64,000 bases of DNA from Candidatus Hodarchaeota archaeon. Its GTDB lineage: Archaea > Asgardarchaeota > Heimdallarchaeia > Hodarchaeales > Hodarchaeaceae. Where the stretch lies: the NCBI GenBank assembly GCA_016839815.1, contig JAEOTM010000032.1:32001-96000 (forward strand). Direction: 5' to 3'. Below, in pieces: positions 46,655-63,444 of this stretch (its first letter is position 1; every line of letters begins with the position of its first letter). The notes under the pieces are model-generated. The model saw nothing but the letters and a program-made list of their open reading frames with translations, made no database searches and was not told the DNA's origin. The position numbers were made by a program, and so were the translations under genes.

Positions 46655-48859
46655 TTATATACTGTTTTTTCCTGAATTAATGGGATTTGTAACCTTAGTA
46701 CCTGGTTGATTATTAGCTACCGTATTCTGTAATAGAGACATAGATTCATTTCTCCATTTTTTTCTTTCTAAACGGATTTTCAAAGACGAGAGTTCCATAT
46801 AAATAGCGAGAATAAGTACTATGACAATATTTATTGTTGCATAAATATCTCCACTAAAATTCTTGGTAATAGACCCTAGAAATAAGCAAAACAGAAGGAT
46901 TCGACTAACATTCACGAAGAAGACCATTATTATCCCTTCAGGTTTCTTTCGTATGAATTGAAACCATTGAATAACAACCAAAATGAAAATTTGCAATCCT
47001 AGTGCTGCTACCAAGTGTCCACTCCAGATTGTAAATCCCCCAATCTGATATACAATAGAACTGTCATTCACCGCGCTGATAGAGTAGATAGGAATGTTAT
47101 AAGACCCATCTATACTTAATCCAGTCAGCAAAATTAACACGAAAAGTAGAATTTCATAAACCAAACCCGAAAGTAATGTAAATGAGATGAAGACAGCAGA
47201 AAGAAAAGAAAAAATTGGGCTTAGAATGAGATACAATAGTGTCCAAAGGGTAGAAATTAATTGAAATAGTCCCGATCCATTTTTTTGAGACCTAGAATCA
47301 CCAGAGACGTCACCAGGATGAATATGGGAACGACTATTTTGTATAACTGAAGATTGCGGGGAAATTTGTGTTGAAGTAGATTTGATTTCAGCTCGGGAAG
47401 GAGATTTTGAAGCAGTAGATTTCTGAATCTCCAGATGTGAAGAAGGTGAAACAGAATCACGACCTAAATAATGTAATCCACTGATTATTGATCTTTTTAA
47501 GGCAAGATGTCGTTGAAATCCCACCGTAATTTCGAAAATAAGGTAAGTGCATGGTAGTAGTAAACTTAGAAACACTCCATATGACCCAAAGTAGTCCCAA
47601 AAGTAGTCGTAGCTATATGCAACAAGCATCATTAATGAGCGAATACCGAGTAATCTACCAATCCAGAAACTAGAGCTATTCAACTTAAAGGAGGATCCAT
47701 TAATCTCATCTTCGGATGAAAAGCTGATTACTATCAATGCTATAAGGATTCCACTAGCTAATAAAAGATGGATAGATAAAACTGGTAACAATCGTTCGGT
47801 TTCAAAATAATAAAATTCGCTGATGAAAATGATCTCTCCCCATCCATACCCCCAAGCAAAGAAGAAACTAATCAGGAGAAAAATTCCACTAAGAAGCAAT
47901 GTAAGTCGTTCACCTGTGGAATAATCTTGAAAAGTCCCACTCCACTTGTTTAGTTTATTGTTCATATCTGATATTATCTCATTATTTTCTATTGAGTTGG
48001 CTAAAGCAATCAGTGAGGGAGAAATTGTTTGAATCCATAGCTGACTTTTTAACTGTCTTTCAAGCAATAATTCTCCCGCAATTAATATTGGAACAGCTAT
48101 TATGGCTTCCCAAGGTAATGGTAATAATGAGCCTTTGAGGAGGAGGATAAGAAAACCTATTCGTGCAATTGTGATTATAACAGTATCATCAGAAACTCTA
48201 GAAAATTCTCTTATTGCCATTCTTCTCTTCCATTTCAAGATTAACCATCCTTCAAAGAAGAGGAAAACCAAGAACCATAATATCGAAATGGAGAGATATT
48301 CCTCTATTAAATACTGAATATTACCATAAGAGAAAGTAGTTTGCCCCATGTAACCAAAAGGTCGTATTACTACCATTATTATAGCTGAAATATAGATGAA
48401 AGCTGATATAATTCTAAAAAATGCGAATATTTTGTTTCTTCGAAGCTGAGATAAATAACTAGCAGATATTCGGGGGGTAGAAAAGGCCTTTTTATGAGTA
48501 ATACCTTTAAATTTCTGATTTTCTTTCTGTTTTAATGGAATTGTTGTCGTTAGATCAACTTCCTCATCATCGGATTCTAAATACTGATCACATATTTCAG
48601 AGGGAGAACCACACTCTTCCATAGCCTGTAAAACATTTGAATGGGTAATAGTGACTTCTGTAGCAAGTTCATTGCTCCTAATATACATAAAGTCATTAAT
48701 CTCAGTAAGTAAGGTATCAATTTCATTTGGATGCATTTTACAGGTCGATTTCATATATTCCTCAATATTATCAATGTAAGAGCGAATTAATTCCCTTGCA
48801 TCAGTATTCATTTCTTTCAACTTAACTACCTCTTTCTTGCTTATAAGTGTGAATTTCAT
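46655..48859 (-). CDS. HAAS-domain multi-pass membrane protein (probable start near 48811-48820)
   Basis: N-terminal LI..YI..IE...EI..LL.EI...GSPSEI..QY (HAAS-like); about 12 TM helices; directly downstream of PadR. Confidence 0.7.
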   Translation of the reverse strand: MKFTLISKKEVVKLKEMNTDARELIRSYIDNIEEYMKSTCKMHPNEIDTLLTEINDFMYIRSNELATEVTITHSNVLQAMEECGSPSEICDQYLESDDEEVDLTTTIPLKQKENQKFKGITHKKAFSTPRISASYLSQLRRNKIFAFFRIISAFIYISAIIMVVIRPFGYMGQTTFSYGNIQYLIEEYLSISILWFLVFLFFEGWLILKWKRRMAIREFSRVSDDTVIITIARIGFLILLLKGSLLPLPWEAIIAVPILIAGELLLERQLKSQLWIQTISPSLIALANSIENNEIISDMNNKLNKWSGTFQDYSTGERLTLLLSGIFLLISFFFAWGYGWGEIIFISEFYYFETERLLPVLSIHLLLASGILIALIVISFSSEDEINGSSFKLNSSSFWIGRLLGIRSLMMLVAYSYDYFWDYFGSYGVFLSLLLPCTYLIFEITVGFQRHLALKRSIISGLHYLGRDSVSPSSHLEIQKSTASKSPSRAEIKSTSTQISPQSSVIQNSRSHIHPGDVSGDSRSQKNGSGLFQLISTLWTLLYLILSPIFSFLSAVFISFTLLSGLVYEILLFVLILLTGLSIDGSYNIPIYSISAVNDSSIVYQIGGFTIWSGHLVAALGLQIFILVVIQWFQFIRKKPEGIIMVFFVNVSRILLFCLFLGSITKNFSGDIYATINIVIVLILAIYMELSSLKIRLERKKWRNESMSLLQNTVANNQPGTKVTNPINSGKNSI

Positions 48860-49217
48860 TATACCAGTTTTGAATGGACATATGATAAGTAAAATATGTT
48901 TGAATCATTGATTCAATCATCTGTTCACCAGTAGTAGTAATAGTATATATTCTACGGGGCATACCTGGAGATTCTATGTCTTCAGCAATTATTGATGTAA
49001 TTAAACCGTCGAGTTCCATTCGTTTGAGCAATGGATATACAGTCCCAGCCTTCAATGGAATTTTAGTCTCTCTAAGCATCTTAATTAACCCATAACCATG
49101 CGCTTCTTCAGTATGTAAACGGATTAGTAACAAGATCATCAATTTTAATAATCCACGTCGTAAATCACGTTCCCAATTTTGGATAATAGTGGGAGCATCT
49201 CTGGAATCTGTGTCCAC
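48822..49217 (-). CDS. PadR family transcriptional regulator
   Basis: LRRGLL, HGYGL, GTVYPLLKRME.DGLI and RRIY.IT..G motifs. Confidence 0.93.
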   Translation of the reverse strand: MDTDSRDAPTIIQNWERDLRRGLLKLMILLLIRLHTEEAHGYGLIKMLRETKIPLKAGTVYPLLKRMELDGLITSIIAEDIESPGMPRRIYTITTTGEQMIESMIQTYFTYHMSIQNWYNEIHTYKQERGS

Positions 49218-50449: not shown

Positions 50450-50797
50450 TTATAAAACTTTTTTGAGTTTTAGTAAATCCACCATTTTACCCTTGATTTT
50501 TAGATCGCCTGCTGTAAAAGCACTCATGGCCTTAATTTCTTTATTGAGTACTCCGAGCCACGTTTTAGAGTCAGTTATTAATAAAATGTCATACTTCTTT
50601 GATTTATCAATCGGTTCTTCTGTGAGTTCTCCAGGTAAACCAGCTGTTAAAGTGGTCGTCCACGTTTTATTAAACTCTTTAAAAGAAAAAGCAACGGTTT
50701 TGTTCCATTTCTTAAAGCGTTTTTTATTTTCTTCTTTAGAAAGCTTCCCTAGTACTTTATTTATCCCGTTCACTACTTGACCTTCCGTATCAGACAT
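50450..50797 (-). CDS. SCP2 sterol/lipid-carrier domain protein
   Basis: TDSKTW..VL......MSAF.AGDLKIKG..DLLKL SCP2 signature. Confidence 0.85.
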   Translation of the reverse strand: MSDTEGQVVNGINKVLGKLSKEENKKRFKKWNKTVAFSFKEFNKTWTTTLTAGLPGELTEEPIDKSKKYDILLITDSKTWLGVLNKEIKAMSAFTAGDLKIKGKMVDLLKLKKVL

Positions 50798-50880: not shown

Positions 50881-52188
50881 TTACGTGGCTTTGGCAACTT
50901 TTGCTGCAGCTCTAGCTTTCTTTTTTCGCGCTTTTTCACGTTTTAATGCAATGTCAAGTTTATTTTTTCGTGCTTGGAGTCCATAATGAATCCATAATCC
51001 AAACGCTCGATACCAAACGTGAGCGAATTTTCCGAAAGGGGCTAAGATCATTAGCTCCATTATGGTAATTACATGGATAACAAAGAACCAATAACTCCAG
51101 ATTGAGGGGATGGAGGTTAGATAGTATGTCAGTGTGATTAAAAATCCAGTTAACCCAACAAGAAATAGATTTGTTAGAAATAACCAATCACAAGTAAGAC
51201 TATGACTTGCATAACGACTATTTTTCTGTACACGAGACCGCACAGCCATAACTACACCGATCATTAATGAAATCCCACTAAAAATCCCCAATAAACGAAT
51301 AGGGTGCGTAATCTCAACCAATTGATTGGCATCTGGTTTTAAAAACATATTCAAAGTTGTAGCTATACCTAAACCAAAGAAACCCCATAATATAAAGAGA
51401 TGCATTAACCAACGGTTTCTAATAAATTGTGATTTAAATTCTGGACGGTGCGGGGGAAGTGCACACTCAAGCTGCCTGTATTGTAGAAAAACTTCTTTGA
51501 AGATTACTATAAATGCCTGTTTGGTCATGATAAACGGAGAAAATAGTAAATGGTAGGCGGTATTGAGCTTCAGATCATTTCTTCGAGTCTTAAAAGCTGT
51601 TTTTACCCCGTTTCGTAGATTTGAATCATACTCCTTCGAAATTTGCCTATACATATTGAGGATAGATAATCCAATTATAAGGAAAAGTACCCCTGCAATT
51701 GCTATCCCCACAATCTCGACAATTTCTTTCGACACAACGTCAAAAAGCCTAACTGGCCTTCCTTCAACAATTTTTTCAGGATTGCCTAGAAGGTTAAAGA
51801 GCACTATTGCAAAAAGAGCTACAAAACCCATAAGGAAGAACCCACCAAATCGGTTCTGGTTAATAATACGAGATAAACCTGTAACTTCATATTGGCCCAT
51901 CGCCCACCTTCGAGATGCCATTACAAACTCTCCAGGTTCTGCATCACGAGGACATGTATCAGAACAATCGTTACAATATGAACATAACCACATCTGGTCA
52001 CTTCCGAGAATCTTTTCCTTTAATCCTACACTCGCATAACGAATGAGATTTCGTGGAAAAGGATCCGCATCATCGGATAAGGGACAAATTGCTGTGCAAT
52101 TGCCACAATTAAAACATGCACTGACATTAAAATCACTGGTGGAATAATTCTTGATTTCGTCAATTAAATCTGGATCAATAATGGTCAT
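50881..52188 (-). CDS. QmoC-like subunit: 2x[4Fe-4S] HdrC-like domain plus cytochrome b-type membrane domain
   Basis: CFNCGNCTAICP and CSYCNDCSDTCP; TM histidines in RWLMH, VIHV and KFAHVWYR. Confidence 0.85.
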   Translation of the reverse strand: MTIIDPDLIDEIKNYSTSDFNVSACFNCGNCTAICPLSDDADPFPRNLIRYASVGLKEKILGSDQMWLCSYCNDCSDTCPRDAEPGEFVMASRRWAMGQYEVTGLSRIINQNRFGGFFLMGFVALFAIVLFNLLGNPEKIVEGRPVRLFDVVSKEIVEIVGIAIAGVLFLIIGLSILNMYRQISKEYDSNLRNGVKTAFKTRRNDLKLNTAYHLLFSPFIMTKQAFIVIFKEVFLQYRQLECALPPHRPEFKSQFIRNRWLMHLFILWGFFGLGIATTLNMFLKPDANQLVEITHPIRLLGIFSGISLMIGVVMAVRSRVQKNSRYASHSLTCDWLFLTNLFLVGLTGFLITLTYYLTSIPSIWSYWFFVIHVITIMELMILAPFGKFAHVWYRAFGLWIHYGLQARKNKLDIALKREKARKKKARAAAKVAKAT

Positions 52189-52201
52189 TCATTCTCACAT
52201 C

Positions 52202-52480
52202 CTATGAGGGGACTCTCGAAACAAGAGCCCACTTGTGATACTGTCCCTCACGATTAGATGTTTCTACAACAAGACTGTACTTTCTCATACTGGTCAGATA
52301 CCAATGAACGACATGCTTGGGCTGACCAATTTCTTCAGCAATTGCTGGAATAGTCTTTTCTTTTGAAGTATCAACATCACTACCCAGTAAAGCTTTACGT
52401 ATGTGATTCTTAATTACGCTGGCTTCAAGAACGCGATTAAAGCGATTCTGAAGTACATTTAGTGGTTTAGAATTACTCAT
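52202..52480 (-). CDS. Small winged-helix protein inside the hdr/qmo operon
   Basis: TIPAIAEEIG...V.WYL.SMRKYSLV.E; ATGA overlap with the upstream hdrA. Confidence 0.7.
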   Translation of the reverse strand: MSNSKPLNVLQNRFNRVLEASVIKNHIRKALLGSDVDTSKEKTIPAIAEEIGQPKHVVHWYLTSMRKYSLVVETSNREGQYHKWALVSRVPS

Positions 52481-54525
52481 ATGTCAACCTCCTGCACAAA
52501 TCCATCAATCATACCTTCCAAAGCTGCTAATGAATACCCTTGAACATCAATTGCTCCTGGAGTGGGACACACTGCAACACAAGCACCACAACCTTTGCAT
52601 AGTGCAGGATTTACTTGTGCACAAGAAACAATTTCATTATTGATAGTTGTTTCAACCATTTGTATTGCATCAAGATATTCACATTCATTTACACATAGAC
52701 CTGTCCCTGTACAAATCTCGGGTTTTACTTTAGCCACATAGGGTTCGAGTTCTGTAAATTCCTTACCCAAAATAATAGATGCTTTGGAAGCTGCGGCAAG
52801 TGCTGCGGAAGTTGCTTCTGTAATATCAAAAGGTGCTTGAGCGGTGCCCGCTAGCATAATACCACTGTTAGCCACCTCAACAGGCCGTAATTTCGGATGT
52901 ACTTCCAGAAGAAAACGATCAGCTCCAATAGGAAGATTGAGCTGTTCGGTTAGATTTTTTTGATCTTTCGCTACCATTCCTACTGCAAGAACAACTAAAT
53001 CAACAGGAATCTCAATTTCTTCTCCGTAAGTTAAATCGTCCTTTACTTTCATATGGAGACGGTGCCCTTCTTCAGGTTTATAAACAGATGGTAAATCATT
53101 GGAAGTATATTTAAGAAAAATAGCTCCAGACTTGGAAGCAACCTCATAATAATCTTCTTCATGAAAACGACCATAAGTTCGCATATCACGATAAAGATTA
53201 TACGTTTTTACGTGAGGAAAACGTTCTTTAAGTTCATTAACGGATTGAAGACTAGCAGTGCAACATACGCGAGAACAATACTCGTTCAGTTCCCCATTGC
53301 AATTCTGACCAGGTTTAAAGTTCTTTCCAGCTTGTCTACTTCCCACACAGTGAATGAATCCAACCGATTTGATTGGATGTCCATCCCACTCTAATTTCTC
53401 TTCAAATTCTCCGCTAGGGGCTGTCATTCGGATGAATTGGGGTAATGTGATTACATTTGGATATTCATTCCATCCATATTCCCCTTCAAATGGAATATAT
53501 GTATCAAAACCAGTGGCTAATATTATTACTCCTACGGTGATATCAGTAAATGTAGGATCAGCGGCTACTTGAAATCGATTTGAATCATCAAGAGCTGCTT
53601 TACATTCTCCACAACTCGTACATGAATTCCAATCAATTGCGGGAGCTTGAGGATAATGACCTGGATGTGGACGGAGAATTGCTTTTTGATCATACTCTCC
53701 GTTGGGGGTAAGTTCCCCATCAACAACTACAGGACAAGCATTCATTGCTATCCGAAGTTCTGCATCACTAATATGACCAACAATTCCTCGTGAAACATGT
53801 CTTTTCAGAGATAATTCAAAATTACCAATATAACCTTTAGCTTTATCAATTTGAGTATTTATATAAACAGTAATTAATGGATGCTTAATAACCTCACTAA
53901 TCAGAAGAGCTAAAGATTCACAGGCAACCTCATTTGTAGGAAAAATTCTATCTAATGATGCCATACGACCTCCTAAATAGGGAGATCTTTCTATTAATTC
54001 CACAGCAAGACCAGAATCAGCTAGGTCTTTAGCTGCACGTAAACCAGAGACACCACCTCCAACAACAAGGACTCTTTTCGTTGTTTGAATCTTTATAGTT
54101 TCTAGTGGATCAAAATTAACTGCTTTATTGACTGCAGCACGAATCAGAGAGATGGCCTTTTCGGTTGCTTTCTCAGGAGTGTGAGGATGAGCCCACGAAA
54201 CTTGTTCTCGGATATTGGCGTGTTCATAGAGAAATACATTCATTCCACCACGATCAGTAGCTCCTCGAAAGGTTGTTTCATGTAGTTTAGGGCTGCAAGA
54301 TGCTACTACAACTCTATCTATTATACCATCTTGGATATCTTTTTCAATAAGTTCTTGTCCTGTTTTAGAACACATAAACATATTACGACGGGATACAACA
54401 ACTTTGGGGTCCTCCTCTAGAGCGTTACGAACCGTTTCTACATTTACAACATCACTTATATTTCCACCACAGTGACAAATATAGACTCCTGCCCGCGGAA
54501 AGTCATTTTTTTCTTCATTGGTCAT
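52477..54525 (-). CDS. hdrA: HdrA-family flavoprotein (large, QmoB-like)
   Basis: GVYICHCGGNI, MCS, ASCSP.LHE.TF, GGGVSG, HCVGSR, YCSRVCC and a C-terminal ferredoxin CKGCGACVAVCP. Confidence 0.9.
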   Translation of the reverse strand: MTNEEKNDFPRAGVYICHCGGNISDVVNVETVRNALEEDPKVVVSRRNMFMCSKTGQELIEKDIQDGIIDRVVVASCSPKLHETTFRGATDRGGMNVFLYEHANIREQVSWAHPHTPEKATEKAISLIRAAVNKAVNFDPLETIKIQTTKRVLVVGGGVSGLRAAKDLADSGLAVELIERSPYLGGRMASLDRIFPTNEVACESLALLISEVIKHPLITVYINTQIDKAKGYIGNFELSLKRHVSRGIVGHISDAELRIAMNACPVVVDGELTPNGEYDQKAILRPHPGHYPQAPAIDWNSCTSCGECKAALDDSNRFQVAADPTFTDITVGVIILATGFDTYIPFEGEYGWNEYPNVITLPQFIRMTAPSGEFEEKLEWDGHPIKSVGFIHCVGSRQAGKNFKPGQNCNGELNEYCSRVCCTASLQSVNELKERFPHVKTYNLYRDMRTYGRFHEEDYYEVASKSGAIFLKYTSNDLPSVYKPEEGHRLHMKVKDDLTYGEEIEIPVDLVVLAVGMVAKDQKNLTEQLNLPIGADRFLLEVHPKLRPVEVANSGIMLAGTAQAPFDITEATSAALAAASKASIILGKEFTELEPYVAKVKPEICTGTGLCVNECEYLDAIQMVETTINNEIVSCAQVNPALCKGCGACVAVCPTPGAIDVQGYSLAALEGMIDGFVQEVDI

Positions 54526-54527
54526 AT

Positions 54528-55928
54528 TTAGCTCTCCGAATTAGCCTCTTCGGCCGTAACAGGAACAATAGTGGATTCCAAAGATGAAAATTCAGTTCGT
54601 TCTTTGTGTTTAGCTTTTAGAAATTTTACAACCTTCATGCTAGCTGCGGAACCCTCTACAATTGTATCAACAATATCTTTGGGGCCCATAGCAGTTCCAG
54701 CACCAAATACACCTTCCAAACTGGTCAAAACAGGATTAAGTTTAAGGTCGACAGCTTCAATAAATCCATCTTTATCAACCTCAACTGGAAAATGACTCGT
54801 AGCACACGAGGCTTGGGTTAATCCCAGACTTAACACTACCATGTCATACTCTTCTTTTGATTTACCACCATTACTACCAATATTTTCGATAGAAAGAATC
54901 AAATTATTAGTTTCAGGATCCTCTTGAATATCTCCAACCTTACCTTTGATAAATTCAACACCCATAGCTTTGGCATTCTCAAAAAATTGCTCGTAACCCT
55001 TACCAAATGCGCGAATATCCATGTAATAACAAGTAACTTGTACAATCGGCAACGCACCAGTAATCAGGATCGCCTGTTTTATTGTATACATGCAACAAAC
55101 TCGACTGCAGTAAGTACGATCTAATGAAGCATCACGGGAACCAGCACAATGAATGTATGCAATATGCATTGGAACTCGACCATCTGATGGACGACGAATT
55201 CCACCGTAAGGCCCATTCGGGGCAAGAAGTCGCTCAGCAGTCATTGAAGAAATAACATTTTGAAATTCGCCACCACCCCACTCTTTCTTTTCACCCACAG
55301 GGGTTAGCTCAAATCCAGTAGCTAATACAACTGACTCAGCTTCTACCTGAACCTGTTCATCTTTTTGAAAATAATCAACCGCGTCTGCTGGGCAAATTCG
55401 AGAACAACCAAGACAAGCAATACAATGTTGCATATCGATTAACGCTACTTGGGGAAGAGCAGTTTGGAATGGAATGTAAATTGCCTTCCGTGTTCCAATA
55501 CCCATTTCAAATTCGGAGGGAACATCGACTGGACACTGAAATTCGCACTGACGACAACCTGTACACTTTTCAACATCTATAAAGCGAGCTTTCTTTTTGA
55601 TATCAACTACAAAATTACCTTTTTCATTTTTATGATACCCAGTCACTTCCGAATATGTCCAAGAATCGATCTTCTTGTGGTGGGAAGTGCTACTCATCTT
55701 GGGAGTGGTAATACAACTCGCGCAATCAAGAGTAGGAAACACTTTTGAAAGTTGGATCATTTTACCGCCGATACTGGGTTCTTTATCCACCACAAGCACA
55801 TCATAATCTTGATCCGCAAGATCTAATGCCGTTTGTAAACCAGCAATTCCCCCACCTATAACTAAAGTAGAATAGATTGTCTCTTCTTCGTCTTTAATCA
55901 TCACTAGTTCCTCCATGGGTTTACCCAT
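54528..55928 (-). CDS. hdrA: HdrA-family flavoprotein (short, QmoA-like)
   Basis: GGGIAG, KVFPTLDCASCI, two CxxCxxCxxxCP motifs, HCAGSRD, YCSRVCC and GPKDI. Confidence 0.9.
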   Translation of the reverse strand: MGKPMEELVMIKDEEETIYSTLVIGGGIAGLQTALDLADQDYDVLVVDKEPSIGGKMIQLSKVFPTLDCASCITTPKMSSTSHHKKIDSWTYSEVTGYHKNEKGNFVVDIKKKARFIDVEKCTGCRQCEFQCPVDVPSEFEMGIGTRKAIYIPFQTALPQVALIDMQHCIACLGCSRICPADAVDYFQKDEQVQVEAESVVLATGFELTPVGEKKEWGGGEFQNVISSMTAERLLAPNGPYGGIRRPSDGRVPMHIAYIHCAGSRDASLDRTYCSRVCCMYTIKQAILITGALPIVQVTCYYMDIRAFGKGYEQFFENAKAMGVEFIKGKVGDIQEDPETNNLILSIENIGSNGGKSKEEYDMVVLSLGLTQASCATSHFPVEVDKDGFIEAVDLKLNPVLTSLEGVFGAGTAMGPKDIVDTIVEGSAASMKVVKFLKAKHKERTEFSSLESTIVPVTAEEANSES

Positions 55929-56397
55929 TCGCTTCTACTGCTACAGACGAAGGTGATTTATTCAAAATGTCTTTAGCAGGTTGAAGACTCCGTAAATACT
56001 CATCCATTTCCTTGATTTCCTTTACAACATGTTTTGCACAAACAGTACATATTGCAGTCAATTTTAAACGCTTAGATTCTAAACCGTACTCATGCTTCAT
56101 TCGTTTCATCACTTTGTTAACTCGTAAGCTAAGACGCTTGAATGCACCAGAATAAGGACATTCCTCACCACAGGACATGATGATTATACCATCAATTCCC
56201 TTACGAAAAGAATCAATATAGAATTCTTCAGGAAAAATGACCGGAGAGGGAACGCGCATTACATATGAATTTGGCGGATACTCCAAATGTTGTTGTCCTG
56301 CATTATCCACCCCAGGATATGAACACATGATTGTAGTCAAAACAAGGATTTTTGGAGTATATTCAACTGTCGCAGACATGGAACGTTTTCCAACCAA
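55921..56397 (-). CDS. MvhD/FlpD-like [2Fe-2S] subunit (variant)
   Basis: KILVL...CSYPG.D.AG..HLEYP, GIDGI...C..ECPY, G....RL and ICTVC. Confidence 0.8.
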   Translation of the reverse strand: MVGKRSMSATVEYTPKILVLTTIMCSYPGVDNAGQQHLEYPPNSYVMRVPSPVIFPEEFYIDSFRKGIDGIIIMSCGEECPYSGAFKRLSLRVNKVMKRMKHEYGLESKRLKLTAICTVCAKHVVKEIKEMDEYLRSLQPAKDILNKSPSSVAVEANG

Positions 56398-56413
56398 AAA
56401 GAATTTATTAAAA

Positions 56414-56692
56414 TTATTTCTTCCTGATCACGTAAAAACGATCGTATCCATCATCTTCTACGAAACCAAGATACTGATGTTTGGCAAAATTAGCCCATGC
56501 AGGGATATCTTCACGTGTACCGGGGTCGGAAGACCAAATTTCCAAAACTTCATCAATATCTACTTTACCGACTGCTTTCTTGGTTTCAAGTAGTGGGCCA
56601 GGACAAGCAGATCCACGTGCATCTACAATATGATCTGATTCTTCAGGGACTTCATTACCCAAATCTGTTTCTTCACTCATTTTTTTAACCAC
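56414..56692 (-). CDS. tusA: TusA family sulfur carrier
   Basis: DARGSACPGP and SDPG...DIPAW motifs. Confidence 0.92.
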   Translation of the reverse strand: MVKKMSEETDLGNEVPEESDHIVDARGSACPGPLLETKKAVGKVDIDEVLEIWSSDPGTREDIPAWANFAKHQYLGFVEDDGYDRFYVIRKK

Positions 56693-56941: not shown

Positions 56942-57478
56942 ATGTTTAGTCGTGATCAAATTAAACGGTTGTTTGAACTCAGTAAAGACCAAATTGTAGA
57001 CGAAACCGATTTCTACATCGTTTGTCTATTAGAACATCATGGAGAAAAAAAAGTACCAGAAATCGTTGAAGCTCTAGAGGAAGAGGGAATCCACCTAAAA
57101 CCTGTTTCTGTCACCCGTCGCATTAAACGTTTAAAAGAAAAAGGTGTATTAGTAAAGATGGTTCCTTTAAGCCGTCTTTGGAAACTTGGATTCTCCCGAG
57201 ATCTACTTCTTATGATTCAAACTGAACCTGGTAGAGATATTGACAAAATAATTGATCAAATAACTCCTATTGAAGGAGTGAAGCGGTTATATCAGATTTT
57301 TGGTGAATATGACTTGCTAGTAGAATTATGTTGTCTAGGAGATGAAGGACTGCAGGAAAGTCTCGCAGCTATTAATTGTGTACCTGGTTTGTCTCGAATA
57401 TCGAAATCTCCTATTCAACATCGAATCAAAGAACATTACTACAATCTACAAGAAAATAAGGAAGAACTAACAGTCTAG
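56942..57478 (+). CDS. Lrp/AsnC family transcriptional regulator
   Basis: D.TD..I, V.RRIKRLKEKGV and RAM-domain GEYDL; divergent from the tusA-hdr operon. Confidence 0.85.
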   Translation: MFSRDQIKRLFELSKDQIVDETDFYIVCLLEHHGEKKVPEIVEALEEEGIHLKPVSVTRRIKRLKEKGVLVKMVPLSRLWKLGFSRDLLLMIQTEPGRDIDKIIDQITPIEGVKRLYQIFGEYDLLVELCCLGDEGLQESLAAINCVPGLSRISKSPIQHRIKEHYYNLQENKEELTV

Positions 57479-57561: not shown

Positions 57562-57918
57562 ATGGTAAAATTCGTAATTGTCTCCACTCATGGAAATGAC
57601 AACTTTGAACGAGCAAGTATGGCTTGGGCAGTAGCAAACGCTGCACATGTGTTAGATGCAGAGGTTATGATGTTTTTACAAGCTGAAGGCGTTAATGTAG
57701 TCCGAAAGGATTTCTGTAAAGGTTGGGTATTCCCTCCATTCACTCCTCTCGAGGATTTGATTAAAAATTTCATGGAAATGGGTGGTCAGGTATATGCATG
57801 TGTTCCTTGTGTTGAAGCCAGGGAGATTAAACAGGAAGATTATATTGAAGGTGTAAAGCTCGCTGGTGCTACTAAACTTCTGGCTGAGTCAGTGGATGCC
57901 AAAGTCTTCACCTACTAA
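57562..57918 (+). CDS. DsrE family sulfur-relay protein
   Basis: FLQAEGV and YACVPCVEAR motifs. Confidence 0.88.
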   Translation: MVKFVIVSTHGNDNFERASMAWAVANAAHVLDAEVMMFLQAEGVNVVRKDFCKGWVFPPFTPLEDLIKNFMEMGGQVYACVPCVEAREIKQEDYIEGVKLAGATKLLAESVDAKVFTY

Positions 57919-59999: not shown

Positions 60000-60563
60000 T
60001 TAATCGTGACTGATCGCTTTTTTCTGTATCAGAGAAATAACCCCACAAGCACCACAGCGGTTCTGACAAGAATGATCATCGAAAAGTTGCTTTACAGAGT
60101 TTGGATGATTGAATAACCAGAAGGGTTTGTCAGCAAATCCTTCTGTTTCTTTAACGAAGAAGCTATTCCGTCTTTTTACTCCTGGAAGATGACTAAGGGG
60201 AAAAGTATCGATAAATTTACTAATTTTCTCCCTCGAATCAGCTACTAAACAGATAACAAGATTATACTCAAAACCTGAAACAGAGAACATCGCGGTAACC
60301 AAAGGACAATCTTGGAAATATTCCAAGATTGCTTGTTCAGTATCGGGATTTGTTATTTCAATAAAGGATAGAGCATGACTAAATTTGAGCTGTGTGATAT
60401 TAATTCCAATACCTGGAGAAATCAGATTTTTTTCCTCAAGATCATCAAATCTCGCTTTAATAGTTCCTTTAGCATAGCTTAAGTCTTTTGCAGCTTGATT
60501 AAAAGAACAACGTGGATGCTTTTGAAAATAATCAATAATTTTCTTGTCTTTTTCGTCTATCAT
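60000..60563 (-). CDS. Lrp/AsnC family regulator with Cys-rich C-terminus
   Basis: IDEKDKKII HTH, CPLV...SG.EYNL and C-terminal HSCQNRCGAC. Confidence 0.85.
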   Translation of the reverse strand: MIDEKDKKIIDYFQKHPRCSFNQAAKDLSYAKGTIKARFDDLEEKNLISPGIGINITQLKFSHALSFIEITNPDTEQAILEYFQDCPLVTAMFSVSGFEYNLVICLVADSREKISKFIDTFPLSHLPGVKRRNSFFVKETEGFADKPFWLFNHPNSVKQLFDDHSCQNRCGACGVISLIQKKAISHD

Positions 60564-60603: not shown

Positions 60604-61776
60604 TCACATTCGACCTGATAGGAATCCATAGAAATATAGAAACCGTTGGTACTTCTTAAAATAATAGAATAACCGATTTGAGATATAACCCAAACCAAAG
60701 GGAGGACGATTGTAATTAAAATCGAAAAACATAGCGGAAGTTAGGGAAGTCATCACTAAACAGGTTGCGTGTCCATTATATTTCTCTTTAACCTCAGAAA
60801 TATCAATCTTTCCTTTGAGTACATCAACTAGGTTATGAGCTACCGCCATAGCCTGATAGTGGGCTGAAGAACCCGCTTTAGATACAGGTAGGTTTGCAGT
60901 ATCACCAAGAGCGAAAATAAAGGGAAATTCCTCATTTTGAAGAGTTTTTGTATTCACATTCACCCAACCAGATTCATCTGCGATCGGACTACCCTGGAGG
61001 TAAAGCTGCCCCGTATGAGGGGGAACCATAAGAAGAAGATCATATTCAATTTCATCACCTTCAAGTGATTCAACTACCTTCTTATCAGCATGAATTGTTT
61101 CTGTATTGAAGAAAGTATGTAAATTAATGTTTTTCTTGGCAAATTTCTTCTCTATATGAACATTCGCCTTTTCAATTGAAAAAGCACCACCAATCGGGCT
61201 CAAGTAATGTAAATTCGTTTTATTACGTAATTTTTTTCGTCTTAGGAAATGTTCCATCATAAATATTCCTTCGAGAGGAGCAACAGGACATTTGAAGGGG
61301 AGATCGGCAATACCAACAACAACATTCCCGCCTGTACCCTTTTCTACAAAATCATCAAGGCTTTTGCGTAATTCATGAATTCCTTCTTCGTTATAATAAT
61401 GATTAGCGCCTTCTTTGAAGCCAGGAACACTATCATAGTCATAATGAGCTCCTGTAGCAATAACTAGATAGTCGAAGGAAAGATTGTTTCCACTAGCAAA
61501 GGAAACAGATTTGTTCTCAATATCTAAGCCAGTAACCTCTTCCTTAAGTATGTTAACTCGCTTATTAACGACTTTTCGAACTGGTTTATACATAGAATTC
61601 AGTGATTTCTTATCAAAGATCCTAAAAGGTAGATCCGCCTCATAAAAAACATTATCTTGTTTTGAGACTAATGTAACGTCAGCTTGTTTTTTAGCTTTAC
61701 GTCCTAGAAGGTTTGCAACAATTACTCCTCCAGTACCTCCTCCTAGTATAACAACTTTGGCTTTTTCTTGACTCAT
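60604..61776 (-). CDS. sqr: Sulfide:quinone oxidoreductase-like flavoprotein (type III-like)
   Basis: GGGTGG, DYLVIATG, KCPVAPLE, ALGD..LPVSKAG and YNGHATC (both active-site Cys present). Confidence 0.85.
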   Translation of the reverse strand: MSQEKAKVVILGGGTGGVIVANLLGRKAKKQADVTLVSKQDNVFYEADLPFRIFDKKSLNSMYKPVRKVVNKRVNILKEEVTGLDIENKSVSFASGNNLSFDYLVIATGAHYDYDSVPGFKEGANHYYNEEGIHELRKSLDDFVEKGTGGNVVVGIADLPFKCPVAPLEGIFMMEHFLRRKKLRNKTNLHYLSPIGGAFSIEKANVHIEKKFAKKNINLHTFFNTETIHADKKVVESLEGDEIEYDLLLMVPPHTGQLYLQGSPIADESGWVNVNTKTLQNEEFPFIFALGDTANLPVSKAGSSAHYQAMAVAHNLVDVLKGKIDISEVKEKYNGHATCLVMTSLTSAMFFDFNYNRPPFGLGYISNRLFYYFKKYQRFLYFYGFLSGRM

Positions 61777-61807: not shown

Positions 61808-62050
61808 CTATCGTGCTTTCCTTACTTGAAATCTTGTGTACCCGTTTTCTTCAACAACGGCTACCATCTCATGTTTAGCTTTCTCAACCCACTTAGGGAT
61901 GTCTTTTATTGAGCCTGCGTCTTTAGACCAGACTTCGTATACTTTCCCAGTCTCTCCTTTTTTGATGGATTTAATCAATTCCATTAAGGGACCTGGACAA
62001 AAAGCATTTCTTGCATCCATAACTTTGTCTGCTTGTACTTCATTACTCAT
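61808..62050 (-). CDS. tusA: TusA family sulfur carrier
   Basis: DARNAFCPGP and D.GS..DIPKW motifs. Confidence 0.92.
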   Translation of the reverse strand: MSNEVQADKVMDARNAFCPGPLMELIKSIKKGETGKVYEVWSKDAGSIKDIPKWVEKAKHEMVAVVEENGYTRFQVRKAR

Positions 62051-62078: not shown

Positions 62079-62489
62079 TTAAAGAAACATTACCCGATCA
62101 GCAAGCATTGCCTCTTCAGCAAGAGTATTGACTCCTGCGATTTTATCAACCATAGGAAGAAGATCTTCTTTTTCTAATCCTAAGATTTCTGTGATTTGAA
62201 CACAGGCTACAATTGTTACTTCTCCCAGATCTTTCAAATCTTCGAGCAGCTCTTTCCAATGCAGCAAATTTCCAGCCTTTCTTGCCTGATTGACTTTTTC
62301 TACCACTTCAGGGTAGATACTAGTGACATCTGGTTCAGGAGGAGCATCCTTTTTCAAGGCATAAACCGCATCGTGCATGAAGAAAATAAGTACTTCATGG
62401 TCACTGGTTACCGCTCCAGATGCTATAATTGCTAAGGTCTGCAGTTTATCAGTAGCCGCAGAATCACAAACCATAAGAAATTTTCCCAT
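62079..62489 (-). CDS. DsrE family protein
   Basis: FFMHDAV, IVAC and AGV motifs. Confidence 0.8.
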   Translation of the reverse strand: MGKFLMVCDSAATDKLQTLAIIASGAVTSDHEVLIFFMHDAVYALKKDAPPEPDVTSIYPEVVEKVNQARKAGNLLHWKELLEDLKDLGEVTIVACVQITEILGLEKEDLLPMVDKIAGVNTLAEEAMLADRVMFL

Positions 62490-62523: not shown

Positions 62524-63012
62524 TTACATGAAAAGGGTGATATCAGCATCTTTCGCAAATTCAAGGAATGTTGCTGCACCACCAGTCTCGACACCATCAA
62601 TAATATCGGATTTTTTAATGCCCATGACATCCTGGGTCATCTGACAGGCGATCATACGAACTCCACCTTCAATACAGGCTTCACGGAGTTCCTCAAATTT
62701 TGCGACATTAGCCTTTTTCATCCAGCTTTTCATCATCATCGTCGCAATCCGGGTCATTCCAGGCAACATTCCCATCCAATTTGGAACGGGTATTAGTCCG
62801 AATGCTTTCGGTGCTGCAGGATTAGCTATGGGGCTAACTTTGAGGTCCTTACTACGTTTTTTGTGAATTAGATCGAAACCATAGAATGTAAAGAAAATCG
62901 CGACTTCCATATCCATGGCCACACCTGTTGAAGCTAGGAGAACAGGGGGATAAGCTGCATCAAGAGTTCCTTGGGATGCAATAATTGCCATACGTTTAGG
63001 TTTTTCACTCAT
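62524..63012 (-). CDS. DsrE2-type sulfur-relay protein
   Basis: GTLD.AYPP, FFTFYG, IACQMT and GAATFL motifs. Confidence 0.9.
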   Translation of the reverse strand: MSEKPKRMAIIASQGTLDAAYPPVLLASTGVAMDMEVAIFFTFYGFDLIHKKRSKDLKVSPIANPAAPKAFGLIPVPNWMGMLPGMTRIATMMMKSWMKKANVAKFEELREACIEGGVRMIACQMTQDVMGIKKSDIIDGVETGGAATFLEFAKDADITLFM

Positions 63013-63025
63013 AATGTCGCATCCT

Positions 63026-63262
63026 TTACTTCATTCGTTTGACTAAATATCGATAATCTTTTGGACCTAACTCTTCAGAAGAAAGAAGATCTTGTCCAGT
63101 GGTACGTGTCCAAGCAGGAATATCAGCCATACTTCCAGGGTCAGTTGATAGTATTTCTAAAATTTGACCGATTTCCATTTCTTTCAAAGCTTTCTTTGAT
63201 TTTAGAACTGGCATTGGGCAACTCAAGCCGCGCGCATCTAAGGTTTTATGTACTTGACTCAT
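63026..63262 (-). CDS. tusA: TusA family sulfur carrier (true start probably ATG 63262; track starts at 63388)
   Basis: LDARGLSCPMP and TDPGS.ADI.AW motifs; AAGGATGA upstream of the ATG. Confidence 0.92.
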   Translation of the reverse strand: MSQVHKTLDARGLSCPMPVLKSKKALKEMEIGQILEILSTDPGSMADIPAWTRTTGQDLLSSEELGPKDYRYLVKRMK

Positions 63263-63444
63263 ATTATTTTCATCCTTAAGTGTTTGATTAAGTGTTTCTT
63301 TGTTATTACCATTATTTGTAGTGAATAGTTCCAAAATCTTTGAATCTTTGGCTAGGAATTCCGAACTAAGGATGGTTTGAGGTTTCAAACCACCGTTTGG
63401 ATTGTTAAGAGTGGTTATGTGCGTTGAAACTATTCAATGTACAG

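Follow-up and report, generated by a model that had tools for sequence, protein, structure and literature searches.

A TusA-headed operon of a Hodarchaeales archaeon encodes a putative quinone-linked HdrA-heterodimer complex of the type II Qmo lineage

Complexes of the Qmo and Hdr types hold a central place in the bioenergetics of anaerobes. A second type of the former, type II Qmo, was reportedly described by Chernyh et al. in 2020 from Ca. Vulcanisaeta moutnovskia and Ammonifex degensii. The class has been catalogued by Neukirchen et al. 2023 (PMC10504309), where it is defined by HdrA-like subunits that resemble typical HdrA more closely than bacterial QmoAB and by a QmoC that falls outside type I; it was recorded with or without Apr and Dsr, and no function was assigned, which left open what type II Qmo does in organisms devoid of Apr and Dsr. 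The sulfur carrier TusA is mentioned neither in the text nor in the supplement of that survey, and full-text searches of the literature, whose coverage did not extend to the review of HdrA modules by Appel et al. 2021, found no paper in which a Qmo- or Hdr-like operon headed by TusA is described or tested. The closest proposal concerns another Asgard archaeon, Nerearchaeum: a preprint models a cytosolic Hdr that reduces persulfides bound to TusA and DsrE (10.1101/2025.07.22.663070). Here, a TusA-headed operon of this general kind is described from a Candidatus Hodarchaeota archaeon (Asgardarchaeota, Hodarchaeales; assembly GCA_016839815.1). It lies in a stretch of 64,000 nucleotides (contig JAEOTM010000032.1, positions 32,001 to 96,000 of the forward strand), which is referred to as the window and whose own numbering is used throughout. 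On balance, and with modest confidence, we consider that its products form a quinone-linked HdrA-heterodimer complex of the type II Qmo family, which would link redox reactions of carrier-bound sulfane sulfur with the quinone pool.

The operon consists of six open reading frames (ORFs) arranged head to tail on the minus strand, from 56692 down to 50881, in the order tusA, mvhD-like, short hdrA, long hdrA, a small winged-helix gene and a qmoC-like gene (Table 1). The order and extent given in the initial annotation of this DNA, which was made from the letters and their ORFs, were thus recovered in full when the genes were identified by Pfam and NCBIfam profile searches. The junctions between the six ORFs measure, in order, +16, −8, +2, −4 and +13 bases, a spacing typical of a single transcription unit. 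At the level of gene content, a TusA-headed operon is confirmed, with the predicted components of a membrane-anchored flavin/iron-sulfur electron-transfer complex. An alternative start of tusA (ATG at 56680) would give a protein of 88 amino acids (aa), which is the length of the closest orthologue.

The QmoC-like protein combines an HdrC-like N-terminus, where eight cysteines form two 4-Cys motifs, with six predicted transmembrane helices. Three histidines (His263, His372 and His390) are invariant in 87 QmoC sequences, including those of type I, and Cys242, Asp334, Lys387 and Arg394 are likewise conserved in this set, genuine type I QmoC included. Judged by these features, the protein has the predicted general architecture of QmoC, an HdrC-like domain joined to a NarI/HdrE-like membrane domain with conserved histidines. 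Because the same residues are conserved in type I QmoC, the module for membrane and quinone appears to be equivalent in function to its QmoC counterpart. The QmoC orthologue of one genome of the same genus (G181:C11:229169-230476, 61% identity) contains an in-frame TGA, for which a sequencing error, a pseudogene or selenocysteine is possible.

The two HdrA-like flavoproteins are unequal in a complementary manner. The short one covers only the flavin core and the inserted ferredoxin domain of methanogen HdrA (5odc_A): a thioredoxin-reductase-like flavin adenine dinucleotide (FAD) core, into which a ferredoxin domain with two full CxxCxxCxxxCP motifs is inserted. It retains the CxxC pair that follows the FAD fingerprint (C69 and C72) and the flavin-adjacent E232/K284 of methanogen HdrA, and is devoid of the N-terminal four-Cys domain and of the C-terminal ferredoxin domain. 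Both of these are present in the long HdrA, which spans the whole of methanogen HdrA (N-terminal four-Cys domain, FAD core and C-terminal ferredoxin domain), and whose inserted ferredoxin domain is degenerate and whose CxxC and E/K pairs are missing. We take E232 and K284 to be the flavin-site Glu/Lys of the methanogen enzyme (E356 and K409 there), which in bifurcating HdrA accompany separate cluster chains of high and low potential, and presume that the CxxC and E/K residues have the structural roles they have in the Mvh-Hdr structure. In conservation alignments of the two HdrA families (71 and 75 sequences), the lysine is found in 69/69 of the short sequences not gapped at this position, an acidic residue (E or D) at position 232 in 68/68 and the CxxC pair in 61/62; the equivalent positions of the long family are variable. 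This complementary asymmetry, which extends across the family, fits a putative obligate heterodimer of short and long HdrA that mimics the HdrA homodimer of methanogens.

Versions of the short HdrA from Bacteroidota and Chloroflexota are enlarged to about 920-970 aa by an NfnB/GltD-like NAD(P)H module in the position of the inserted ferredoxin domain, which suggests that NAD(P)H replaces ferredoxin as the partner in these versions. With this module, which consists of Fer4_20 and Pyr_redox_2, the short HdrA resembles HdrL (for example, L088:4948-7713 and L020:4961-7873). The location of the module at the site of the inserted ferredoxin domain argues that this site is a port for a soluble low-potential partner.

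The active-site carrier cysteine of TusA (Cys30, in the motif CPGP) is invariant in 60/60 TusA sequences from the heads of such operons. Family membership together with this cysteine in a CPxP motif marks the operon-head TusA as a probable sulfur carrier. The MvhD-like protein, which matches the MvhD part of HdrA2 and also VhuD, is a putative [2Fe-2S] electron-transfer subunit; conservation of its cysteines is 94% for C117 and C120 and 80% for C80. The 92-aa protein encoded ahead of qmoC contains no cysteine, and the beginning of its gene shares 4 bases with the end of hdrA. Its label as a winged helix-turn-helix protein was borne out by the AlphaFold model, computed with 26 homologues (mean predicted local distance difference test score, 88.8), which shows the succession helix-helix-helix-strand-strand and has its best fold matches among ArsR/SmtB, MarR and Z-alpha winged helices (template modeling score of about 0.5-0.6). 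The Atlas clusters nearest to it are ArsR- and MarR-like, and homologues occupy the same operon position across phyla at at least 36 loci. DsrD was considered as a model for this protein and dismissed, because no Pfam match was obtained and the 50 fold matches that were listed did not include it. Two apparent TusA-MvhD fusions (P0161 and P0162) were likewise discarded as evidence of physical contact: they are frameshifted, fragmented genes in error-prone long-read assemblies and were considered artefacts.

The initial annotation had made its case depend on the linkage of tusA to the complex being conserved. Scanning the genome collection with the QmoC alignment yielded 80 loci, and gene order was counted in the 56 of them that have at least 6 kb of upstream sequence. 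There, tusA heads the operon in 52/56 cases and the full order tusA-mvhD-hdrA_s-hdrA_l-qmoC is kept in 51/56, usually with a winged-helix gene of about 100 aa before qmoC. The loci span about 14 phyla: among the carriers are Chloroflexota, Bacteroidota, Acidobacteriota, Desulfobacterota, Actinomycetota, Armatimonadota, NC10, Ignavibacteriota and Spirochaetota on the bacterial side, and Bathyarchaeia and Asgard archaea on the archaeal side. Within a sample of the Asgard phylum, a QmoC-like match at E≤1e-40 was present in 19/301 genomes, and within the same genus in 5/21 other genomes, which indicates a patchy accessory module and not a lineage hallmark. Framing the system as a route of an Asgard archaeon was therefore too narrow. 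At three loci of Nitrososphaeria and Bathyarchaeia (L067, L076 and L084), the order is reversed (qmoC-hdrA_s-hdrA_l-mvhD) and no tusA stands at the head; the deepest archaeal branch of the QmoC tree thus includes members that are not linked to TusA.

The flanking genes of the 80 loci were clustered into families. Only two other families are frequent: DsrE, which adjoins the operon in 23/56 loci, and an ArsR-type regulator, which lies upstream in 29/56. LysR, PadR, sigma-54 activators, Crp and hemerythrin are less frequent neighbors, and genes for YeeE/YedE and rhodanese occur at related loci. The ArsR proteins have two conserved cysteines, one in the motif AExCK and one in the C-terminal helix, and their solved relatives include HlyU, YgaV, SqrR and BigR, which we take to be the reactive-sulfur-sensing branch of the ArsR family. 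No family of Apr, Sat, CCG, hydrogenase or GcvH proteins is recurrent among the flanking genes of the 80 loci.

Phylogenetically, the operon falls outside canonical Qmo, as the initial annotation had anticipated. The score of the QmoC-like protein stays below the type I equivalog cut-off (Table 1), and a branch with a support of 100 splits the three type I references from the 84 other sequences of the QmoC tree. In the HdrA tree, the short subunits form one clade (support 100) and the long subunits another (99), and QmoA and QmoB together constitute a clade of their own (100). The internal topologies of the short and long clades mirror each other, which indicates that the operon was inherited as a unit. 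Against type I QmoA/QmoB, the short HdrA scores 180-240 bits and the long HdrA 120-143 bits, compared with 398 and 461 bits against methanogen HdrA. The claim that the cluster fits none of the known systems overlooked the class catalogued by Neukirchen et al. 2023: by the published definition, the type II Qmo lineage is where the operon fits best.

The complex does not serve adenosine 5′-phosphosulfate (APS) reductase. Among 50 carrier genomes, AprA was found above the cut-off in 7 and DsrA in 7, and neither was found in 41/50. Three sulfate reducers of the Desulfobacterota possess a canonical QmoC (435-498 bits) in addition to the TusA-type copy (207-250 bits); at the canonical loci inspected in two of these genomes, qmoAB adjoins the gene, and in one of them a gene for an AprA-sized flavoprotein lies upstream. 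The presence of both forms in the same sulfate reducers indicates that the two systems coexist and are not interchangeable. In a bin labeled Desulfobacter, a second cluster (L110; G001:C40:1-12000) has the order aprB-aprA-CxxCxxCC protein-qmoA-qmoB-qmoC-sat; its QmoA and QmoB group with type I and its QmoC (250 bits, below the cut-off) with the non-type-I clade, making it a mixed-type Qmo. A similar mixed-type Qmo is on record for Ca. Acidulodesulfobacterales (supplement of Neukirchen et al. 2023, PMC10504309).

The host genome comprises 4.24 Mb and is 89.5% complete, with 7.8% contamination; in whole-genome searches at this completeness, AprA, DsrA, ATP sulfurylase and the NIR_SIR sulfite-reductase domain were not found. 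Neither of the two outcomes that the initial annotation had named as fatal to its reading, aprAB/sat together with proteins inside canonical Qmo clades, or a tusA linkage that is not conserved, was observed. A MenA homologue above the cut-off makes a quinone plausible. The closest homologues are annotated as Hodarchaeales or Promethearchaeota, and four genomes of the same genus carry orthologues with 61-87% identity; the operon is thus native to this Asgard lineage and not a contamination. The reported absence of a CCG-domain HdrB or HdrD, AprAB, a hydrogenase and a lipoate-binding protein holds for the window and also for its 131-kb contig (C45). It does not hold for the genome as a whole, where HdrBC, LbpA-like proteins and a hydrogenase are present on other contigs: 19 matches to the CCG domain (PF02754) in about ten proteins, a [NiFe] hydrogenase of the Mvh type, and four GcvH-like matches, of which two adjoin hdrBC. 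The hydrogenase, several of the CCG proteins and two of the GcvH-like genes are clustered on contigs C25 and C189. These same contigs carry paralogous tusA-mvhD-hdrA-hdrA-small ORF-qmoC operons (C25:2731-8053 and C189:10774-16088), whose proteins share 81-87% identity between the two contigs and about 43% with those of the copy in the window. Each lies within a larger island containing mvhAG-hdrABC, a fused double HdrA of 1040 aa, hdrD and GcvH-like genes; mvhD follows the fused hdrA on both contigs, and qmoC comes next on C189. Given the contamination of the bin, the C25 and C189 copies are either true paralogues or represent two strains.

Upstream of the operon, on both strands, the window holds further sulfur-related genes (Table 1), so that in total there are three tusA, three dsrE-type genes and one SQR-like gene; the extra copies of tusA were found by tblastn. 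An SCP2-fold gene (50450-50797, minus strand) follows on the same strand 83 bases downstream of qmoC. Further downstream (46655-49217, minus strand) lie a gene for a PadR regulator and an ORF of 734 aa without a Pfam match; PadR genes recur near the bacterial operons as well.

Table 1. Genes of the TusA-headed operon and sulfur-related or regulatory genes beside it, in window coordinates.
Feature	Coordinates	Strand	Basis of assignment and remarks
tusA	56414-56692	-	92 aa from GTG 56692; PF01206, E 1e-20, 73.5 bits
MvhD/FlpD-like gene, free-standing, 158 aa	55921-56397	-	PF02662, E 4e-21
Short HdrA-like flavoprotein, 466 aa	54528-55928	-	HdrA family; 398 bits to 5odc_A residues 145-561
Long HdrA-like flavoprotein, 682 aa	52477-54525	-	HdrA family; 461 bits to 5odc_A residues 3-650
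Small winged helix-turn-helix protein, 92 aa	52202-52480	-	Pfam, no match; AlphaFold model
QmoC-like membrane subunit, 435 aa	50881-52188	-	NF038018 (type I equivalog), 185 bits (cut-off 300); HdrC TIGR03290
lrp/asnC-type regulator, divergent	56942-57478	+	PF01037
dsrE	57562-57918	+	PF02635
lrp	60000-60563	-	Pfam
SQR/FCSD-like flavoprotein	60604-61776	-	Pfam
tusA	61808-62050	-	Pfam; tblastn
dsrE	62079-62489	-	Pfam
DsrE2-like gene	62524-63012	-	Pfam
tusA	63026-63388	-	Pfam; tblastn

How these components might work together can be proposed from their relatives. The short and long HdrA would form the heterodimer, with the flavin pair at the center of the complex; the free-standing MvhD-like [2Fe-2S] protein and the winged-helix protein would complete the set. 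Electrons would enter or leave via MvhD, and the HdrC-type relay, instead of leading to HdrB, would end in a cytochrome-b-like domain: the QmoC-like subunit, with its di-[4Fe-4S] domain and six-helix anchor of the cytochrome-b type, would hand them to, or accept them from, the menaquinone pool. At the other end, the chemistry would be that of zero-valent sulfur bound to TusA or DsrE, that is, reduction of persulfide or polysulfide to H2S, or the reverse. The ferredoxin-type domain of the short HdrA may serve as a port for a third, low-potential partner, ferredoxin in this archaeon and NAD(P)H in the HdrL-like variants, and such a partner would permit flavin-based bifurcation or confurcation. 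The conserved partners TusA and DsrE, together with the bacterial regulators of the persulfide-sensor type, make coupling to sulfane-sulfur redox chemistry the most likely function. That TusA-bound sulfur is the redox substrate, and that the complex belongs to energy metabolism, is inferred.

Several observations weigh against sulfur as the redox substrate. No invariant cysteine beyond the cluster ligands was found in the family alignments of MvhD or of either HdrA, and no recognizable site for disulfide or persulfide chemistry, and no CCG/HdrB domain, was found in any subunit. Heme binding, quinone reactivity and complex formation are predicted by homology. Many carriers are ordinary heterotrophs without a known sulfur energy metabolism. 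The complex might serve to detoxify or assimilate sulfur or simply pass electrons between ferredoxin and quinone. In addition, about 25 protein clusters have an ArsR domain fused ahead of TusA, the TusA part being 57-62% identical to TusA of the window. These fusions keep both cysteines of the sensor-type ArsR and the CPGP cysteine of TusA, and have the appearance of a persulfide sensor that brings its own sulfur carrier. They head the operon mvhD-hdrA-hdrA-small ORF-qmoC-dsrE and in some cases provide its sole TusA (examples of the fusions are L121:8001-8585, L122:8001-8612 and L123:5057-5668; proteins P0152 and P0159). Their position implies that the TusA at the head of the operon may feed sulfane sulfur to a repressor, instead of or besides the complex, so that the role of TusA may be sensing rather than substrate delivery.

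Taken to its conclusion, this would make the complex a ferredoxin (or NAD(P)H):menaquinone oxidoreductase of general anaerobic energy conservation, where TusA, DsrE and the ArsR/winged-helix proteins respond to sulfane sulfur by turning the complex or its operon on and off, and the part of sulfur is regulatory only. The missing sulfur-active site, the fusion of TusA to a persulfide-sensor-type ArsR at the head of otherwise identical operons, the fermentative or heterotrophic carriers and the HdrA-type electron-input domains, with the NAD(P)H module of some variants, all speak for it. However, a co-transcribed free TusA, often with one to three DsrE, YeeE and rhodanese, exceeds what a sensor needs, and a two-flavin HdrA pair with MvhD is elaborate for a reaction between two partners. 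In Mvh-Hdr complexes, MvhD is the docking or entry module for a third partner. A purely regulatory part for sulfur is thus regarded as unlikely, though it is an explanation to be taken seriously.

Coupling to sulfane-sulfur chemistry, the function favored here, could take a more ambitious form, in which the complex is a flavin-bifurcating enzyme of a new kind and the sulfide/protein-persulfide couple on TusA or DsrE is its mid-potential substrate. Oxidation of sulfide to carrier-bound sulfane sulfur would then drive the simultaneous reduction of menaquinone and ferredoxin (or NAD(P)+); run backwards, the enzyme would use ferredoxin together with menaquinol to reduce zero-valent sulfur. The standard potential is about −75 mV for menaquinone and about −450 mV for ferredoxin, with a mean of about −260 mV, and that of S0/HS− is about −270 mV. 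The last couple is thus bracketed symmetrically, and bifurcation or confurcation would be thermodynamically natural, which is an argument rather than evidence. This form is advanced tentatively and is, in our estimate, rather unlikely.

Less probable again is a catalytic partner encoded in trans, a CCG-type HdrB/HdrD, the Mvh hydrogenase or an LbpA-like protein, which would turn the complex into a membrane-linked heterodisulfide or sHdr-type system. The genome offers such partners in its roughly ten CCG proteins, its Mvh-type [NiFe] hydrogenase and its four GcvH-like matches, and in one of the paralogous clusters hdrD adjoins the fused hdrA-mvhD-qmoC. All of these candidates are, however, located off the 131-kb contig, and the recurrent neighbors at the 80 loci are regulators, DsrE and hemerythrin, and not CCG, hydrogenase or GcvH families. 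An ordinary QmoABC serving APS reductase, with aprAB and sat missing merely through an incomplete (89.5%) and contaminated (7.8%) bin, is highly improbable: it could draw on the architecture and invariant residues shared with type I QmoC and on the one non-type-I QmoC in an aprBA-qmoAB-qmoC-sat cluster (L110), but AprA, DsrA, ATP sulfurylase and NIR_SIR were all missing from the genome searches, 43/50 other carriers are without AprA, sulfate reducers own a separate canonical QmoC, the QmoC score and the position of the HdrAs outside the QmoA/QmoB clade contradict it, and no Apr-like family recurs within the 10-kb flanks of the 80 loci.

For type II Qmo, these results offer a testable answer to the question of function: a self-contained TusA-headed operon, usually accompanied by DsrE and regulators of the persulfide-sensor type. 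If coupling to sulfane sulfur proves true, it would fill a gap in the processing of sulfane sulfur by anaerobes without persulfide dioxygenase, Dsr or Sox, and would add a sulfur-dependent membrane redox module to the metabolism of Heimdall-group Asgard archaea, which are central to hydrogen-sulfur syntrophy models of eukaryogenesis. Should the complex also bifurcate, relatives of the archaeon from which eukaryotes arose would possess an unrecognized and widespread route of sulfur-dependent energy conservation.

Four known systems come closest to the operon. In the accounts of type II Qmo consulted, TusA, DsrE, a free MvhD and a winged-helix gene are not mentioned. With the type I QmoABC of Desulfovibrio, Archaeoglobus and Chlorobaculum, it shares a short and a long HdrA-like flavoprotein, an MvhD module, a QmoC made of an HdrC-like di-cluster domain and a six-helix anchor with the same invariant His, Asp, Lys and Arg residues, and a presumed link to quinone. 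It differs in that MvhD is a separate ORF of 158 aa, whereas it is fused to QmoB in type I, in that AprAB and Sat are absent and TusA heads the operon, and in the winged-helix gene inserted before qmoC. No solved Qmo structure was found by a sequence search of the PDB, where only HdrABC-type complexes and sHdrA were matched.

With MvhAGD-HdrABC and related complexes (PDB 5odc, 7bkb and 8rvu), the HdrA fold, the FAD and cluster motifs, the MvhD electron-entry module and the HdrC-type di-cluster relay are shared, and the E/K pair near the flavin is retained in the short HdrA. An HdrB with two CCG domains, which in HdrABC is encoded with HdrA and HdrC, is absent from the operon, and hence there is no non-cubane disulfide-reducing site; nor is a hydrogenase encoded there. 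The homodimer of HdrA is replaced by two unlike HdrAs, a putative heterodimer, and HdrC is fused to a membrane domain that resembles cytochrome b.

The sHdr-LbpA system with DsrE3/TusA, as in Hyphomicrobium and Metallosphaera, has in common with the operon HdrA-family genes linked to TusA, DsrE and an ArsR-type regulator. It is recognized by the arrangement hdrC1B1A-hyp-hdrC2B2 together with lbpA, of which C45 contains no trace in the form of a CCG or GcvH match. In contrast to the soluble sHdr, which has HdrB1B2, HdrC1C2, LbpA and a short sHdrA with one cluster (about 350 aa; 349 aa in 6tjr), the operon of the Hodarchaeales archaeon is devoid of HdrB and LbpA, encodes HdrAs of 466 and 682 aa with multiple clusters, and includes a membrane subunit predicted to be linked to quinone.

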